Notes: generated by a model from the letters alone, not told the origin. A DNA stretch of 64,000 bases from Dehalococcoidia bacterium (GCA_045562575.1 JBJKVQ010000021.1:2463-66462); one strand, 5' to 3'; positions 25,671-32,655 are shown, counted from the stretch's first letter. Numbers and translations are program-made.

Positions 25671-27902
25671 CTACTTGGATTTTTTACTTATTTCTAAATT
25701 AGCTAAACTCATCAATAATTTTTTTTTGCCAGTGGAACTAAAATGAACATCAATCACAAAATCGTTTCCACTTTCAGTGCATAATAAAACAATTCCTTCC
25801 CCAAAAGATTTATGAATTACTTTTGTTCCTATTTCAATAGGATCTAATAATTCAGTTGCATCCTCTTTCTGTTTATGAACAGTATTTGGATCAAATACCG
25901 TTTTGCGAGCGGCCGAATAAGAATTGGTTTTTTCTAGACTTTGTATATTTAATTCCGAAATATCTGAAAGAAAACGTGAAGGTATACTGGTTTGACTACC
26001 TTGACCAAAACCATATCGTTTATATGCCCTTAATAAATATAACAATTTTTCTGCGCGAGTAATTCCCACGTAGCACAGTCTTCTTTCTTCTTCTAGTTGT
26101 ACAGGATCATCCATACTTCGTATATGCGGCAATAATCCTTCTTCCATACCTGCTATAAAAACCACTGGAAATTCTAATCCTTTTGATTGATGTAAAGTAA
26201 TTAAAGTTATTGAATTTTCATTTGTATCTAATCCATCTATATCACTAACCAAAGCTATTCTGTCCAAATATTCTGTCATTGATGTAATTTCTTCAGTTTC
26301 CTTTAGCTGTATAGCCAATCCTTTTAATTCCATTACATTTTCTAATCGATCAAGACCATTAGTTTCATCCTGTTGTAAAAACGCTTGATACCCCACATCG
26401 ACAATTATTTTTTCAATTATTTCTGAAGGTGTGCTATCGACAGAATCAGAAATTAATTGTTGTAAAAGATTCGAGAATAGATTCAATGAAGTTGCAGCAC
26501 GTCGAGTTAAACCAATTAATTGTTGTAATTCTTCTATACTATTGTATTCAACAATAGTCTGATAAATTGTCTTATTTTTTGATTTAGCAACATCAACTAT
26601 TTTATTGTAACTTGTAGATCCAATTCCCCTTGTCGGCACATTAATAATTCGCCCTATGCTTATATCGTCATCAGGATTAGCTATAACCTTGAGATATGAA
26701 ATTACATCCCTAATTTCTTTTCTACTGTAGAATTTAATTCCACCGACGATTTTATAAGGAATTTTATTAGAAAGACACGCTTCTTCAATTACCCGTGATT
26801 GAGCATTCACTCTATACATTATTGCGCATTGGTCCCATTTATATTTTTCCACCTTTACCAATCGCTCGATTTCATGAATTATTTTTTCTGCCTCTTCTTT
26901 CTCTGAATATCCTTCATCTATAATCAGAGATTCACCTACACCATTATTAGTCCATAGTTTATTAATAATATTTGTGTCATTAGTGGATATAAGTTTAGAA
27001 GCTGCATCTAAGATATTTTGGGTAGATCGATAATTTTGAGAAAGATGAATAACCTTTGCACTAGGATAATCATTTTGAAATGATAATATATTTCTTATAT
27101 CTGCATTTCTCCAAGAATATATCGATTGATTAGGATCCCCTACAACACATATATTTTCATGCTTTTTACCTAACAATCTCATTAAGGTGTATTGAGCTAT
27201 ATTAGTATCTTGAAATTCATCAATCATCAAATGTTCATATTTATCACTATAGTATTCTTGTATTTCTTGAGAATTTTGCAGTAACTGGACTGCCTTCATT
27301 AATAAATCATCAAAATCTAAAGCACTATTTGAATTTAAAGTTTTTTGATAACTTTCATATACTCTCGATACAATCTCATCATAAAAGTTTTTACTAGTAC
27401 CACCCAAAACTTCATATGATAATAAATTACTTTTATGTTTAGATATTGAAGCTAACAAAGACCTAGGAGGAAATCTTTTATGATCTATTTGTAATTCCTT
27501 AAGAGATTCGTTTATAACCTGTAGTTGATCACTATCATCATAAATAACAAAATTCTGATTCAAACCAATAAACTTTCCATGTTGCCTCAATATATACACA
27601 CAAAAACTATGAAAAGTTCCACATCGAAGATTAAAAGCATCTCTACTCATAATCATATTATTTATACGTTCTTTGATTTCATTCGCAGCACGATTTGTAA
27701 AAGTCACAGCCAAAATATTTTGTGAATCGATAGATAATTGACTTATTAAATAAGATATACGATGTGTTATAACCCGCGTTTTACCACTACCAGGGCCTGC
27801 TAAAACCAATAAAGGGCCGTCAGTAGTACTAACAGCATCTTGTTGTTCAGGATTAAGTCCAGAGAAAAATTGATCGTTCACTAATTTATCAAAACTTTTC
27901 AA
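25671..27902 (-). CDS. pcrA: PcrA/UvrD superfamily 1 DNA helicase
   Basis: AGPGSGKT, TFTN.AA, DEFQDTN, VGDPNQSIY.WR, QNYRST, TLHQSKGLEF, EERRLCYVGITRA, C-terminal H..FGEG tudor-like domain. Confidence 0.95.
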   Translation of the reverse strand: MKSFDKLVNDQFFSGLNPEQQDAVSTTDGPLLVLAGPGSGKTRVITHRISYLISQLSIDSQNILAVTFTNRAANEIKERINNMIMSRDAFNLRCGTFHSFCVYILRQHGKFIGLNQNFVIYDDSDQLQVINESLKELQIDHKRFPPRSLLASISKHKSNLLSYEVLGGTSKNFYDEIVSRVYESYQKTLNSNSALDFDDLLMKAVQLLQNSQEIQEYYSDKYEHLMIDEFQDTNIAQYTLMRLLGKKHENICVVGDPNQSIYSWRNADIRNILSFQNDYPSAKVIHLSQNYRSTQNILDAASKLISTNDTNIINKLWTNNGVGESLIIDEGYSEKEEAEKIIHEIERLVKVEKYKWDQCAIMYRVNAQSRVIEEACLSNKIPYKIVGGIKFYSRKEIRDVISYLKVIANPDDDISIGRIINVPTRGIGSTSYNKIVDVAKSKNKTIYQTIVEYNSIEELQQLIGLTRRAATSLNLFSNLLQQLISDSVDSTPSEIIEKIIVDVGYQAFLQQDETNGLDRLENVMELKGLAIQLKETEEITSMTEYLDRIALVSDIDGLDTNENSITLITLHQSKGLEFPVVFIAGMEEGLLPHIRSMDDPVQLEEERRLCYVGITRAEKLLYLLRAYKRYGFGQGSQTSIPSRFLSDISELNIQSLEKTNSYSAARKTVFDPNTVHKQKEDATELLDPIEIGTKVIHKSFGEGIVLLCTESGNDFVIDVHFSSTGKKKLLMSLANLEISKKSK

Positions 27903-29277
27903 TAATATTTTTATAATTTGTATCGTCTTCTCTTACGTCACCTCTATCAATTAATGATTGATTAGTAGGAGAAGCTGGTTTATAACCAGCAGGCATGTTT
28001 CCAACACGCATATCTTGCACCTCTGTACCACTTTTATATTCAGATACAACTTCATCATCTTCAAGATCTAAAATATCATCTTCATCAAGTCCTAATAGAT
28101 TCGACAATACATAAGAATTATGAAATCCAAGAGGTGCAGTTGGATTTTGAATATATCCATTTGTTTTACTCATATTGAATGGCAATCCAGAATATATACG
28201 TTTACCAATATTGGTTTCTTCATAATGTTCTACTTGTTCAAAAAATTCTCGATACTTGTATTGTTTATCCTGTAATAAATCTCTTGAATTATTCACTGGT
28301 GCGGCAGCTATATTTATAGATTGTAGTTTTTCAACAACTTCTTGCTTTGAAAGTTTTTCACTCCAGGTCTTAATATGATTATCAATTTCATCGTGATGAG
28401 TAAAACGATCATCATTATTTGGATATTTATCTGCTACTAAACTTTCACTATTTACTAAACTACAAAATTTTCCCCATTCATCATTAGTTTTAATAGTTAA
28501 AACAAACCACTCATCGTCACCTTCGCATGGATAACAACCTTGTGGTGCAAAAGTATTATGACGATTTCCATTTCTTTGAATATATTTATCGTTATAGGCA
28601 ACATCCAACAAAGGAGAACTCACTACAGGTGTACAAGCTTCTAACATTGAGTGATCTATCCATTGACCCTCTCCTGTTTTATTTCGATGATACAAAGCCA
28701 TAGTGATAGCACTCACAATGTTCCATGCAACTACTAGATCCATGATTGACTGACCCGCTTTACTAGGAGTTTTATCAGGAAATCCAGTCAAATGAGAAGT
28801 AGTAGCAGCCTCAATCACTTGTGCCATTCCTACGTAATCTTTCCACGGTCCACTGTGGCCATATCCTGAATTGGAAAGCATAATTAGATCGGGTTTTACT
28901 TGCTTTAATTGATCATAATTTAAACCTAAATTGGTCATCACTCTCGCAGAAAAATTTTCTGCTACGATATCTGAAATTGATACCAAATGTTTAAATAAGT
29001 CACGACCACTATCTTCAGATAAATTTAAAGTAAAACTTTTCTTGCTTCTATTTGAACCATTGAAAGCACCAGATCGGTCATGCCAATTTATACCAGGATC
29101 GCCGTCGGGAAATGGCCCTAAGAATCTATAAAAGTTTGGCCTTTGTGCATATTCTATATGTATTATTTCAGCACCCATATCGCCCAAGATACTCATTGCC
29201 ATTGGTAAAGCAAGTATATCTGATGTTTCTATTATTCTTACACCATGTAGAGGTAATGGTTTATTATTCATTGTCAC
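27889..29277 (-). CDS. Family III CoA-transferase (CaiB/BaiF), catalytic-type subunit
   Basis: LGDMGAEII.IE, NRSKKS.TLNL, ENFS, SGYG..GP; catalytic Asp position retained (SIMDLVVA). Confidence 0.92.
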   Translation of the reverse strand: MTMNNKPLPLHGVRIIETSDILALPMAMSILGDMGAEIIHIEYAQRPNFYRFLGPFPDGDPGINWHDRSGAFNGSNRSKKSFTLNLSEDSGRDLFKHLVSISDIVAENFSARVMTNLGLNYDQLKQVKPDLIMLSNSGYGHSGPWKDYVGMAQVIEAATTSHLTGFPDKTPSKAGQSIMDLVVAWNIVSAITMALYHRNKTGEGQWIDHSMLEACTPVVSSPLLDVAYNDKYIQRNGNRHNTFAPQGCYPCEGDDEWFVLTIKTNDEWGKFCSLVNSESLVADKYPNNDDRFTHHDEIDNHIKTWSEKLSKQEVVEKLQSINIAAAPVNNSRDLLQDKQYKYREFFEQVEHYEETNIGKRIYSGLPFNMSKTNGYIQNPTAPLGFHNSYVLSNLLGLDEDDILDLEDDEVVSEYKSGTEVQDMRVGNMPAGYKPASPTNQSLIDRGDVREDDTNYKNIIEKF

Positions 29278-30464
29278 TTAATTACCCCTTTGTCTTTCAT
29301 ATCTTTGATAATATTAGAATCAATGTTAAGAATTGTTGTTAAAATATCTTCGGTATGTTGACCTAATGAGGGCGAACCTTCTCTAGGTATACCTTTGGTT
29401 GCATTTAAACCTAAAACATTCGAAACATGAGGTAATCCAGTTAATTTTCCATGATCAATATTAGTAAAATAATCTCTTTCAATTAATTGTTCACAATATA
29501 GTAATTCTTTTGGACTTAATTCTCTACTCGCCATAAGACGCCATGCGTGAGCTTCATGAAAAAAGTCATCTTTATCTATTTCTTGTAGCCGATTTAAATA
29601 TAATGATTTAAGCTCTTCATAATTTTCTTCTCTACCTTGTGGTGTTGAAAATCTCTCTTCATACATTTCAGGAACACCAAGAAATGCTGCAATTTCTTCA
29701 AAATCTGTGCTTCTTATTACTGAAAGTCCCACATGTCCATTACTAGTTGGCCACAAATCCACTCCAAATAGTAATCGATTTTTAGGTCCACGACCCCAAA
29801 TAGCTCCTGTGTATGTGTAATATTGTAAAGCATAAGGGATACACGAAGTTACTACCTCGGCTATACTAACATCAATGTATTGGCCTCCTAAACGATCAGC
29901 GCATAAAAGCGCCATCATTGTTGAACTTAATGCTACTTGACCGGCTACAAATTGAAACAATGGCACCCCAAATGACATAGGTTCGCCATCATAATCACCA
30001 CTAACATACATATTGCCACCGAATGCTTCCAAACTTATTTGAGACCATTCCCAATCACTATTTGGGCCATTCTGGCCATATGGTGTTATAGAAGTAATTA
30101 CCAAATTGGCATTATTATTAACTAAATCAGAAAAAAGTAAGCCTTTTTGTTCCAGAAATTTAGGCGGTGTGCCATCCACAATAACATCTGCCTTTTGAGC
30201 CAGTTGAACAATAAGGTCTATTGAGTTTTCATCATCAAAATTAACAGAAATACTTTTTTTCCCGGTGTTTAAACTTAAAAATAGAGTACTATGATCAATA
30301 TTTGAAGAATCTTTAATAAATGGTTCTTCATTTCTAATCGAATCACCATCTATTGTTTCAATTTTTACAATATTAGCACCGTAATCAGCTAAAATTTTAC
30401 AGCAATATGAAGCAGATATACTTGAGCCTATTTCTAATACTAATACGCCGTCTAAAGGTAACAA
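29274..30464 (-). CDS. Family III CoA-transferase, probable non-catalytic subunit
   Basis: LADYGANIVKIE, LNTGKKSI, ITPYGQNGP; Asp position replaced (PLFQFVAG). TTG start after AGGGAGGAG. Confidence 0.88.
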   Translation of the reverse strand: MLPLDGVLVLEIGSSISASYCCKILADYGANIVKIETIDGDSIRNEEPFIKDSSNIDHSTLFLSLNTGKKSISVNFDDENSIDLIVQLAQKADVIVDGTPPKFLEQKGLLFSDLVNNNANLVITSITPYGQNGPNSDWEWSQISLEAFGGNMYVSGDYDGEPMSFGVPLFQFVAGQVALSSTMMALLCADRLGGQYIDVSIAEVVTSCIPYALQYYTYTGAIWGRGPKNRLLFGVDLWPTSNGHVGLSVIRSTDFEEIAAFLGVPEMYEERFSTPQGREENYEELKSLYLNRLQEIDKDDFFHEAHAWRLMASRELSPKELLYCEQLIERDYFTNIDHGKLTGLPHVSNVLGLNATKGIPREGSPSLGQHTEDILTTILNIDSNIIKDMKDKGVIK

Positions 30465-30544: not shown

Positions 30545-31756
30545 TTAATTTGATGGCTTTGGGAACCAGTCTTCTTTCCAAGGCCAATCTCCATCTACCT
30601 CAAACACAGGCAGACCTTTATCTAATCTATCTTTGTATGGGCTAGCAATAGGTTCACGCCAAGGATAAACTCCTCCTTCGTAAGCCTTTGAACCAACTTT
30701 GAAATGTTTTGTTTGTTCCAATGTTTCTACGAAAGGTGCATTCATATCGTACACCTTAGTCTTAACATTTCTACCATCAATACCATTGGAAGGTCTGGGT
30801 CCAGCTCTTGAAACATGTCCCCACAACTGTCTTCCTAGGATTTCTTCAGCCATCCATACAGTCTCGATTAGTTTATCCAAATCTACTCCTGTATCAATAC
30901 CCATGTCTTCCATCATATGCATTGAGTCTTCAGTTGGAGCCATCCCTGTAGCTCTTCCGTTACCACAATAAGGGCAACCACCGAAACCACCTATAGTACC
31001 ATCAAGAGCTAAGTCGTCTTCTGGACCAAGAGCTCTTAATGCTGCATAGTGTGAAGTTACAGCCATTCCTCTACTATTGTGGGAATGTAATGACCAATGA
31101 GTAACTTCTGGCCATTTTTCTTTTACACGATAGATAATTTGTTCTACCTTTTCTGGATGAACCCATCCCATGGGATCTCCCATACTGGCTTGGGTAACCT
31201 GAATACCAGCATCTTCCCAAAGAGCATGTTGGTGCTCGAGTAATGCCATGTATTGATCTACTGAAAAATCTCCCAGAAAGTTAGATCCAAATGAAGCATT
31301 AGCACCGATACCAGCTTCCTTTGCACCTGATTCTATTGCACGGGCAATAACTTTAGGCCAATTCTCCATCTCCTGCATTTGTGATCTATTTGTATTTCTT
31401 CGAACAAATACGTCACACATATGGCAACTGAGAGAAGGTCGACCAGTACCTCGTTCAATAGTAAGCGGTGGGGAATACTCTTTGGCTCTTTCAACTCCTC
31501 TTTCATTGAGTGCTAATGCGGTGTATGTTACACCTTCAATAGGCTTAAATTTGGACATCAATTCATCCATTCTAGCCATTTGTGGAGTATATCTAGGACT
31601 TACAAAAGATCCGACAACAATCTGCTTTAAACCAGTTTCGCCTAAAGCATTAAGCAATTCAATTTTATCATCGATAGCTATATTTGAATCTTCAATTTGC
31701 ATACCTTCTCTTAAACCTTGTTCGGTATAAGTAACTTTTGGATACCTATTAGACAT
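30545..31756 (-). CDS. HMG-CoA lyase / citramalyl-CoA lyase-like DRE-TIM metallolyase
   Basis: EQGLREGMQ, GSFVSPRYTPQMA, HSHN, GG.GGCPY, PTED, TGVDLDKL. Strong SD AAAGGAGGAG. Confidence 0.88.
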   Translation of the reverse strand: MSNRYPKVTYTEQGLREGMQIEDSNIAIDDKIELLNALGETGLKQIVVGSFVSPRYTPQMARMDELMSKFKPIEGVTYTALALNERGVERAKEYSPPLTIERGTGRPSLSCHMCDVFVRRNTNRSQMQEMENWPKVIARAIESGAKEAGIGANASFGSNFLGDFSVDQYMALLEHQHALWEDAGIQVTQASMGDPMGWVHPEKVEQIIYRVKEKWPEVTHWSLHSHNSRGMAVTSHYAALRALGPEDDLALDGTIGGFGGCPYCGNGRATGMAPTEDSMHMMEDMGIDTGVDLDKLIETVWMAEEILGRQLWGHVSRAGPRPSNGIDGRNVKTKVYDMNAPFVETLEQTKHFKVGSKAYEGGVYPWREPIASPYKDRLDKGLPVFEVDGDWPWKEDWFPKPSN

Positions 31757-31811
31757 ATTCTCCTCCTTTCATCGATAACATATAACAAGTAAGTAAAATT
31801 ATTTTGGGCAT
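31749..31811 (-). CDS. Putative 20-aa leader peptide MPKIILLTCYMLSMKGGEYV
   Basis: SD AGAAAGGAG (31825-31817) lies 5 nt before ATG 31811. The ORF overlaps the SD and start of the downstream lyase gene. Confidence 0.4.
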   Translation of the reverse strand: MPKIILLTCYMLSMKGGEYV

Positions 31812-31816
31812 CTTAA

Positions 31817-31940
31817 CTCCTTTCTGACCTTCGGTACCCCCAGGGAGGGGTCCTTGCCTTACATTAAAAAACCCATGATGTGAAATAGCTTTAATGCCTT
31901 CGGATTAAAAACCCTTGCAAACAATCTCATATCACGAGTC
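31817..31940 (-). ncRNA. Candidate structured cis-regulatory RNA with two repeated GCAAGG/CCGAAGG hairpin units
   Basis: Two hairpins share an AA/GAAG internal loop. The first sits in a roughly 22-bp basal stem followed by U6. Locally GC-rich within an AT-rich intergenic region. Confidence 0.55.
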
Positions 31941-32001
31941 AATAAAAACCGATCCTGAATCTAATGTCAATACTAAAGACCTATATATACTATTATAGAT
32001 T

Positions 32002-32655
32002 TCATAATTTATTTACATTGTCTTCAAGTAATGTAATGTTTTGATGTTTATCTAAATATTTTTGGATTTTTACTTGGATTTCTTGATAATAATTATCAGC
32101 AAAAATATTGTCAGCAGTCATAATTATTGCATCTTCTTGATTATCAGAATAATATCTCTTTCTTCTCCCCACTTCTATCAAATCATATTTGGAATATAAG
32201 TTCTGAGCAATTTCATTCGTCACTCTTACTTCTAAAGTCACTGAATTCATTTTCTTTTTAAAAGCTCTTTGAAATGCAGCAATTAAAAGCATTTCACCTA
32301 ATCCCATACGCCTAAACTCATCTCTAGTTGCTATAGAAGTAATATGAGATTCATCAAGTGAATACCATATCCCAATATAGCCAACTATAATTGAATCTTT
32401 GGGGACAGATATTTTTGAAGAAAATAAATTCTGTAATTTTTTTAAGGATTTTTTTATAAATGAAGTATTCAAATTAATTTGAGGATAAACTACTTCATCA
32501 TCTAACTTACAATTTATTACAAAATATTCAGTCAATTTGTTATCGAGTTCTCGTTTAAAAGGTATAGGGGGCCACATAGTAGGAAAGGCTTGCCGCTCAA
32601 TTACTGCGACTTCAGAAATATCATTATTTTTCATTAATCTTACTGAAAAATTCAT
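32002..32655 (-). CDS. rimI: Ribosomal-protein-alanine N-acetyltransferase (GNAT)
   Basis: HITSIA....RRMGLG, TLEVRVTN..AQNLY, RKRYYSDNQEDAIIM. Confidence 0.9.
   Translation of the reverse strand: MNFSVRLMKNNDISEVAVIERQAFPTMWPPIPFKRELDNKLTEYFVINCKLDDEVVYPQINLNTSFIKKSLKKLQNLFSSKISVPKDSIIVGYIGIWYSLDESHITSIATRDEFRRMGLGEMLLIAAFQRAFKKKMNSVTLEVRVTNEIAQNLYSKYDLIEVGRRKRYYSDNQEDAIIMTADNIFADNYYQEIQVKIQKYLDKHQNITLLEDNVNKL

Follow-up and report, generated by a model that had tools for sequence, protein, structure and literature searches.

An intergenic region within the 64,000-nt stretch of Dehalococcoidia DNA analysed here (hereafter the window) carries on its minus strand, upstream of an HMG-CoA-lyase-like gene, two small hairpin units that share a conserved internal loop, and this two-hairpin leader is most likely an uncatalogued cis-regulatory RNA and a riboswitch candidate. 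The element is conserved in 15 distinct leaders, in each of which it occupies a metabolic gene's 5' UTR in sense orientation, and its covarying stems surround highly conserved unpaired nucleotides, all of which are features by which riboswitches are recognised. Time and again, structured leaders that combine invariant loops with covarying stems have proved to be metabolite sensors, and orphan classes among them flag unrecognised metabolism. The motif is well supported and testable, but it is rare and its hosts are uncultured.

Two similar hairpin units upstream of the lyase gene

The minus-strand sequence contains both units exactly where the initial annotation had placed them (Table 1). Unit 1 reads UGC-AA-GG-(GUUUUUAAU)-CC-GAAG-GCA, with the signature GCAAGG at 31918-31913 and CCGAAGG at 31903-31897, and unit 2 reads GGC-AA-GG-A-(CCCCUCCCUGGGG)-GUA-CC-GAAG-GUC, with the same two elements at 31857-31852 and 31834-31828. 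Under our covariance model of the unit, R1, they score 34.3 bits (E 7.6e-8, genome) and 50.6 bits (E 2.2e-13), respectively. The pattern GCAAGG-N(3-30)-CCGAAGG occurs twice in the window against 0.01 matches expected, a number reached in none of 100 shuffles, and the two units are also its sole matches in the whole genome assembly (1.45 Mb, 88% complete), in which the reversed control pattern gave no match.

Table 1. Features of the lyase leader and its surroundings in the window, and the groups of distinct leaders
Feature	Position	Strand	Remarks
Intergenic region	between rimI-like acetyltransferase gene (32655-32002) and HMG-CoA-lyase-like gene (31756-30545)	-	holds both units
-35-like hexamer TTGACA	31965..31970	-	read from sequence
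-10-like hexamer TTTTAT	31942..31947	-	17 nt after -35 hexamer
Transcript 5' end (approximate, probable)	31935..31935	-	7 nt after -10 hexamer
Domain 1, long imperfect hairpin	31875..31935	-	unit 1 near tip; MFE and consensus fold
Unit 1 core	31895..31919	-	P1 UGC/GCA, internal loop AA/GAAG, P2 GG/CC, short apical hairpin
Linker GGG-U6-AAUGUAA	31859..31874	-	predicted 5' arm pairing with start-codon region
Unit 2	31826..31858	-	P1 GGC/GUC, loop AA/GAAG, P2 GG/CC, then distal part
Unit 2, distal part		-	1x3 inner loop (A / GUA) and P3 hairpin
Shine-Dalgarno (SD) AGAAAGGAG	31817..31825	-	1 nt after unit 2 P1
Short ORF, 20 codons	31749..31811	-	uses unit-2 SD; stop overlaps lyase start (ATGTCTAA)
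HMG-CoA-lyase-like gene, 403 aa	30545..31756	-	sole gene always behind motif
Two family-III CoA-transferase genes	29274-30464 and 27889-29277	-	Pfam CoA_transf_3; NCBIfam hits below cut-offs
Low-GC marine leaders (n = 5)			window, L033, L034, L053, L054
High-GC two-unit leaders (n = 9)			L037, L038, L039, L044, L049, L050, L051, L052, L064
Single-unit leader (n = 1)			L042

Folding of the minus strand to minimum free energy (MFE) yields both hairpins (-45.1 kcal/mol vs -31.8 kcal/mol for the plus strand). Against shuffled sequences this energy is not significant (z = -0.48), and support for the structure therefore rests on comparison with other sequences and not on folding energy. The long basal stem proposed earlier for unit 1 (31940-31870) is only partly retained: a long hairpin is indeed predicted, but its outermost 5 bp (31940-31936) probably lie upstream of the transcription start. 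Compensatory changes are found at five pairs of this domain in the consensus fold of the five low-GC leaders, and an equivalent extended stem is present in nine high-GC leaders.

Covariation and architecture of the module

Two alignments were examined, one of 26 units and a second, model-fitted one of 29 hits, which includes one false hit of 16.8 bits and leans towards the model. In the former, the core C-AA-GG / CC-RAAG-G is invariant or nearly so at its C, AA, GG, CC, AAG, and G positions, the first base of the 3'-side loop being G or A. The stems around this core vary and still pair: the outer P1 pair is G-C in 18 units, U-A in five, and A-U in one, the middle P1 pair is G-C in 20, G-U in five, and A-U in one, and the first P3 pair is U-A in 8-9 and C-G in 8, besides others. 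Overall, 90.6% of the cells are paired, and the covariation score is 0.298 compared with 0.133 +/- 0.018 in shuffled alignments, none of 500 of which reached it, although such counts overstate the number of independent events because the sequences come from a few related lineages. When the 3' partners were slid by 1-3 columns, pairing fell to 23-61% and covariation collapsed. The model-fitted alignment gave the same result for P1 and P3, and RNAalifold predicted both units in the nine high-GC leaders, with a long extension of the P1 of unit 1, and likewise in the five low-GC leaders. The earlier view of a strand-specific structured RNA, whose two units have a common conserved internal loop and whose stems differ yet keep their pairing, is thus upheld across these 26-29 units. 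P2 (GG/CC) is invariant apart from one G-U pair, and we treat it as a presumed pairing because it almost never varies.

Beyond P2, a second small loop follows in unit 2 (A opposite G-N-N, or in L064 G opposite A-A) and in most high-GC copies of unit 1 (0x2 or 2x2), and it is absent from low-GC unit 1. Terminal loops measure between 3 and more than 16 nt, without conservation of their sequence, and the spacing between the units varies from about 39 to 60 nt, at times with an inserted hairpin. The module consists of a P1 of 3 bp or more that is closed by an invariant C-G pair, an asymmetric loop (5' AA, 3' RAAG), and the GG/CC step, beyond which come, in most cases, another small loop and then a hairpin that varies. 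A pseudoknot between the unit-1 loop and the SD region could be drawn by eye in three leaders (L037, L039, and L044) and not in the others.

The AA/RAAG loop, asymmetric, purine-rich, and placed between G-C-rich helices, presumably resembles kink-turn, tetraloop-receptor-like, and UAA/GAN-like modules, and we assume that sheared G-A and A-A contacts are possible within it. A kink-turn is built of a 3-nt bulge followed by tandem sheared G-A and A-G pairs. In the 29 hits the pair after the loop is always C-G, and the next pair is G-C in 23, G-U in five, and A-U in one; the kink-turn assignment was rejected because the position that should be a sheared A-G pair is a covarying Watson-Crick pair.

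Distribution of the leader

Homologous leaders were collected by searching genome and metagenome contigs with the lyase protein. Ten loci were obtained from genome contigs and the motif was found at six of them: both units precede the lyase on four groundwater Chloroflexi contigs (61-63% GC) and at a locus of the same genus as the window (L036), and L042 has unit 2 only. At least two of the four loci lacking the motif lie inside operons. Both units are also present in two genomes of the same genus. Metagenome contigs gave 80 loci, 77 of which were examined, the N-terminal part of the gene being missing from L063, L079, and L122; a regular expression detected the motif in 10 of the 77 and the covariance model added L051, where it stands before the first of two tandem lyase copies, five loci having less than 100 nt upstream, too little to judge. 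After removal of duplicates, 15 distinct leaders remained, all directly upstream of orthologous lyases, and they span from 30% GC marine to about 65% GC groundwater Dehalococcoidia/Chloroflexi (Table 1). The internal loop proposed in the initial annotation is conserved throughout these homologous leaders. In L052, unit 1 has two changes at otherwise invariant positions and unit 2 has the top score of all units (57.4 bits).

The motif-bearing lyases are 76-100% identical to the window lyase, and the motif is absent from 23 loci whose lyases are 68-76% identical. Close lyase homologues (E<=1e-170) occur in 75 of 400 sampled genomes of the order. When 100 relatives were searched with R1, hits of at least 29 bits were confined to the six motif-bearing genomes and one further genome (G091). 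The G091 hit (L134, 30.6 bits) was judged to be a chance match, as it is part of a long palindrome flanked by two minus-strand genes and no gene follows it on its own strand. Weak hits (<=26 bits) were present in 26 of the 100 relatives, and the eight inspected fell in coding or unrelated sequence. A search of 151 genomes of the class gave six hits outside the window's own genome (24-30.5 bits, five genomes), and these fell in long open frames. The literal pattern was also surveyed over 200 genomes of the order and matched in 168; this survey is uninformative because the reversed control matched about as often in GC-rich genomes. Among 30 pattern loci inspected, only one weak candidate (L027, 14 bits) was motif-like, and in the two same-genus genomes matches were present and the control had none. 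Taken together, the R1 and lyase searches imply that the element is uncommon, occurs in only a few lineages, and is linked to a single gene.

The palindrome of L134 (1501-1600) is long and perfect and lies between pyrophosphatase and glycyl-tRNA synthetase genes; it is probably a bidirectional terminator that matches the motif by chance.

Promoter and transcript

Hexamers resembling a -35 and a -10 element precede the leader (Table 1), and, by reading, the high-GC leaders have TTGACW, a spacer of 16-17 nt, and a TAWGKT-like -10 element at the same relative place. A simple promoter scan omitted the window promoter because its -10 hexamer has no A at position 2. Sampled words of 31300-32100 were found at 69-74% in six metatranscriptomic runs and at 88-100% in 14 DNA runs. 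Four RNA runs from four studies gave one contig each that extends unbroken over the lyase and its leader, so both units lie in the lyase mRNA. These contigs cover 31300 upward and end at 31935, 31935, 31919, and 31912; past 31919, the third continues as a loose end of 23 nt without a match in the window. In all four runs RNA depth is zero over 31946-32300 and the upstream gene is uncovered. The 5' end of the transcript is probably near 31935, with the caution that contig ends are weak indicators of exact starts and silent on abundance. Rather than beginning downstream of the motif, a case that the initial annotation had considered adverse to its proposal, the contigs reach 31912-31935.

Start region and the short ORF

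Unit 2 had been described as abutting an SD sequence, and this arrangement recurs in every leader: P1 of unit 2 ends 1 nt before the SD in 15 of 15 distinct leaders. In the window, AGAAAGGAG is followed by an ATG at 31811 that opens a short ORF. Such an ORF is found in all five low-GC leaders (20-21 codons, with variable middle residues), its stop lying 4-7 nt after the lyase ATG in each, which suggests that it may be translationally coupled to the lyase in the window genus. In the high-GC relatives, the corresponding SD and ATGCC start the lyase directly; since the ATGCC of the short ORF equals this high-GC lyase start, the ORF looks like a duplication or insertion of the initiation region. 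No conserved ORF that could encode a leader peptide was found inside 11 leaders, two of which lack any ORF of at least eight codons. Leader-peptide attenuation was excluded, the 20-codon ORF of the low-GC genus being located after unit 2, on the unit-2 SD.

The low-GC consensus fold continues P1 outward past a small internal loop, and in it GGGU-UUUUAAU (31874-31863) pairs with GUUAAGA-UGCC (31817-31806), burying the AUG. In the five closely related low-GC leaders, only 6-56 of 500 shuffled arms paired as well with the start region. Complementary arms can be drawn for most high-GC leaders (UUCCGG/CCGGAA, UCCAGG/CCUGGA, and GCCUG/CAGGU), but in ten high-GC leaders such pairing was matched by 19-88 of 100 shuffles in one test and by 83-465 of 500 in another; being no better than shuffles there, the sequestering helix is supported for one genus and conjectural elsewhere. 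Sequestration of the SD was likewise discarded as a conserved platform, its pairing partners differing from leader to leader.

Comparison with known RNA classes

The Rfam 15 collection (4227 models) gave no hit at gathering thresholds over the whole window, only two unrelated chance hits at E<=10 in 31700-32050, and, at the same relaxed cut-off, none in the leader regions of five homologous loci, in agreement with the initial annotation, which had not recognised the motif as a known family. No description of the motif was found in the accessible portions of the literature, and it may appear as an unnamed entry in the supplements of surveys (PMC5737381, PMC8632094). The NAD+-I riboswitch (nadA motif) has two similar stem/internal-loop domains in tandem and is confined to one bacterial phylum, where it is found before a single enzyme gene and nowhere else (PMC6859854), and the lyase leader resembles it both in its tandem stem/internal-loop domains and in its single-gene association. 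It differs from NAD+-I in its conserved nucleotides, in its gene (the lyase instead of nadA), in its phylum, and in having no Rfam match. Guanidine-II RNAs (mini-ykkC) have two small hairpins with a common short element, a variable linker, and an SD beside the second hairpin. Unlike in guanidine-II, conservation in the lyase leader falls on an internal loop, its terminal loops are variable, and the genes are unrelated to guanidine; membership in that class was rejected, as there is no conserved tetraloop and no Rfam match. These two classes appear to be the nearest architectural analogues, and the leader belongs to neither.

Tandem riboswitches, such as the glycine and tandem complete arrangements, also have two like aptamers, and single-aptamer variants of them exist; the leader is comparable in that its accessory copy can be lost, but its modules are much smaller and Rfam indicates no homology. 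Two further candidates were considered and rejected. CsrA/RsmA leaders present GGA motifs in hairpin loops, and the GG of our motif occupies a stem position opposite CC. Targets of ANTAR proteins are tandem hairpin pairs in which the hexaloops are conserved and the second hairpin overlaps a terminator; in the lyase leader the loops, of 3 to more than 16 nt, are unconserved and an SD, not a terminator, follows unit 2.

Possible modes of regulation

We consider the chances to be about even that the leader is a new orphan cis-regulatory RNA of the lyase in the form of an effector-binding riboswitch that acts on translation. Unit 2 stands alone where unit 1 has been lost (L042) or has decayed (L052), and it is thus taken to be the working part; the constant position of its P1 beside the SD implies that it acts at translation initiation. 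In such a scheme, unit 2 would recognise an effector, the likeliest being a small metabolite from the pathway of the lyase. Binding would organise the AA/RAAG loop together with, in unit 2, the loop next to it. The organised loop might lock P1 and an extension helix, thereby changing ribosome access and presumably lowering initiation. In the window genus, this helix would be formed by GGG-U6-AAU with GUUAAGAUGCCC, covering the AUG, and control might then pass to the lyase through the 20-codon ORF. Unit 1 would serve as an accessory second copy that provides cooperativity or a second site. An OFF switch seems somewhat more probable than an ON switch, although it does not offer an obvious logic for a catabolic enzyme. 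A more specific proposal, which we advance tentatively and rate a little below an even chance, is a new riboswitch class, confined to SAR202-like Dehalococcoidia/Chloroflexi, in which one or two minimal AA/RAAG aptamers detect a metabolite arising in the breakdown of branched C5-dicarboxylates or hydroxy-acyl-CoAs and gate translation of the lyase; a CoA thioester, free CoA, citramalate, itaconate, mesaconate, HMG, and acetoacetate are candidate ligands.

Several observations weigh against an effector-binding riboswitch, and some of them would suit a protein operator, in which the two modules bind an RNA-binding protein, possibly dimeric, that represses or activates lyase translation. The association with a single gene points to no ligand and is also what autogenous operators show, so that the lyase itself, as well as a dedicated regulator encoded elsewhere, might be the binding protein. 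With about 13 fixed nucleotides, the module is small and of a size also typical of protein-binding sites, its duplication at a spacing of about 39-60 nt would suit a dimer, and no clear ligand-dependent alternative structure was found. We nevertheless regard a protein operator as rather unlikely. No conserved gene for an RNA-binding regulator stands beside the leader, one unit is enough in L042, and leaderless lyases have the same domain layout, including the C-terminal extension, with no mark of an RNA binder. The AAGGA strand of unit 2 is similar to CsrA sites, but no csrA gene (PF02599) was detected in six of six motif-bearing genomes searched (86-98% complete), while control genomes were positive. 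The expression platform of a riboswitch is not conserved. The absence of a conserved switch-like alternative fold, together with an SD that is largely single-stranded in several predicted ensembles, would fit an effector-free, constitutive folded 5' UTR that stabilises the mRNA or serves as a ribosome standby or enhancer platform. Such a role appears improbable to us: protective hairpins do not require that some 13 nucleotides of the loop and its closing pairs stay invariant in two copies from 30 to 65% GC, and the invariance of these nucleotides while the stems drift points to specific recognition.

A further possibility concerns unit 1, which had initially been assigned to transcription termination, with unit 2 assigned to translation, so that two switches would act in series. 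All five low-GC leaders have GGG and 6-7 U after the domain-1 hairpin (the U6 run of the window at 31871-31866), and a precedent is the HMP-PP riboswitch (thiS motif), a very small, terminator-embedded aptamer inside a regulatory hairpin (PMC6478431), which the low-GC genus recalls in that unit 1 caps a long hairpin followed by U's. The sequence and gene context of HMP-PP are unrelated, and the terminator reading is unsupported outside one genus: in most high-GC leaders, domain 1 is not followed by a U-tract of this kind. If transcription starts near 31935, moreover, the stem stops 3 nt short of the U-run. The RNA contigs continue across the U6 run in all four runs, although contigs cannot measure termination efficiency, and a terminator scan listed nothing here, although its simple stem-loop rule would miss such a hairpin. 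The low-GC consensus fold assigns the U-run to the start-codon region instead of to a terminator tail, and this pairing explains the U-run without termination. Coupling of unit 1 to termination has accordingly lost ground; we judge the split mechanism to be quite unlikely, and it would be limited to one genus and compatible with a translational riboswitch.

Whichever effector acts on it, the motif marks a widespread, uncharacterised HMG-CoA-lyase-like enzyme of uncultured dark-ocean and groundwater Chloroflexi, and the identity of the effector would be a direct chemical clue to what this lyase degrades or makes. The module, being very small and present in one or two copies, is easy to synthesise and probe. 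If the ligand carries CoA, the leader would be the first natural CoA-sensing RNA; if the effector is a protein, it would reveal a post-transcriptional regulator in Chloroflexi, a phylum in which, to our knowledge, none has been described.

The lyase and its gene neighbourhood

The lyase matches the Pfam HMGL-like family (1.5e-22), and its best solved relatives are HMG-CoA lyases (1e-34), and it falls below every NCBIfam cut-off. It may cleave a 3-hydroxy-3-alkyl-acyl-CoA of the citramalyl- or HMG-CoA type, which would fit these matches. The R-citramalyl-CoA lyase of Chloroflexus reportedly belongs to the same family and adjoins a family-III CoA-transferase. Control of the whole CoA-lyase cluster, as initially proposed, would hold for the lyase, which is always downstream of the motif, but not for the CoA-transferases, which are replaced or absent in relatives. 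The CoA-transferase pair follows the lyase only in the window genus; elsewhere the next genes are those for a ThDP enzyme and one CoA-transferase (L038), an Fe-S protein (L049), or a CoA-transferase (L064), and L037 and L042 have none on the same strand. Lyases without the motif are usually located after an MmgE/PrpD-like gene and before a MaoC-like dehydratase gene, and more distant ones between enoyl-CoA hydratase and acyl-CoA synthetase genes, neighbours that suggest hydroxy-acyl-CoA cleavage and indicate no regulator or ligand. No conserved regulator gene was found beside the leader in the neighbourhoods of the window and its relatives.

Several other features of these neighbourhoods were observed. 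Tandem lyase copies (two or three, 76-80% identity) occur in relatives (L051 1076-3703, G142:C84 5121-8950, and upstream in L040), with the RNA motif before the first copy only. A rimI-like GNAT acetyltransferase gene lies directly upstream of the lyase in the window (32002-32655, minus strand), L042 (2139-2801), and L064 (383-1267), and on the far side of the lyase, on the opposite strand, in L176 (2740-3411); the window and L042 also have ABC exporter genes on the other strand. The lyase neighbourhood thus appears, from gene order, to be old though the downstream genes differ. In L038 (4387-7206), the ThDP-dependent enzyme behind the lyase has TPP_enzyme N/M/C domains, and its pairing with a family-III CoA-transferase recalls that of oxalyl-CoA decarboxylase or 2-hydroxyacyl-CoA lyase with formyl-CoA transferase. 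In the window, a PcrA/UvrD helicase gene (25671-27902, minus strand) shares 14 nt with the end of the second CoA-transferase gene and may be co-transcribed with the lyase operon.
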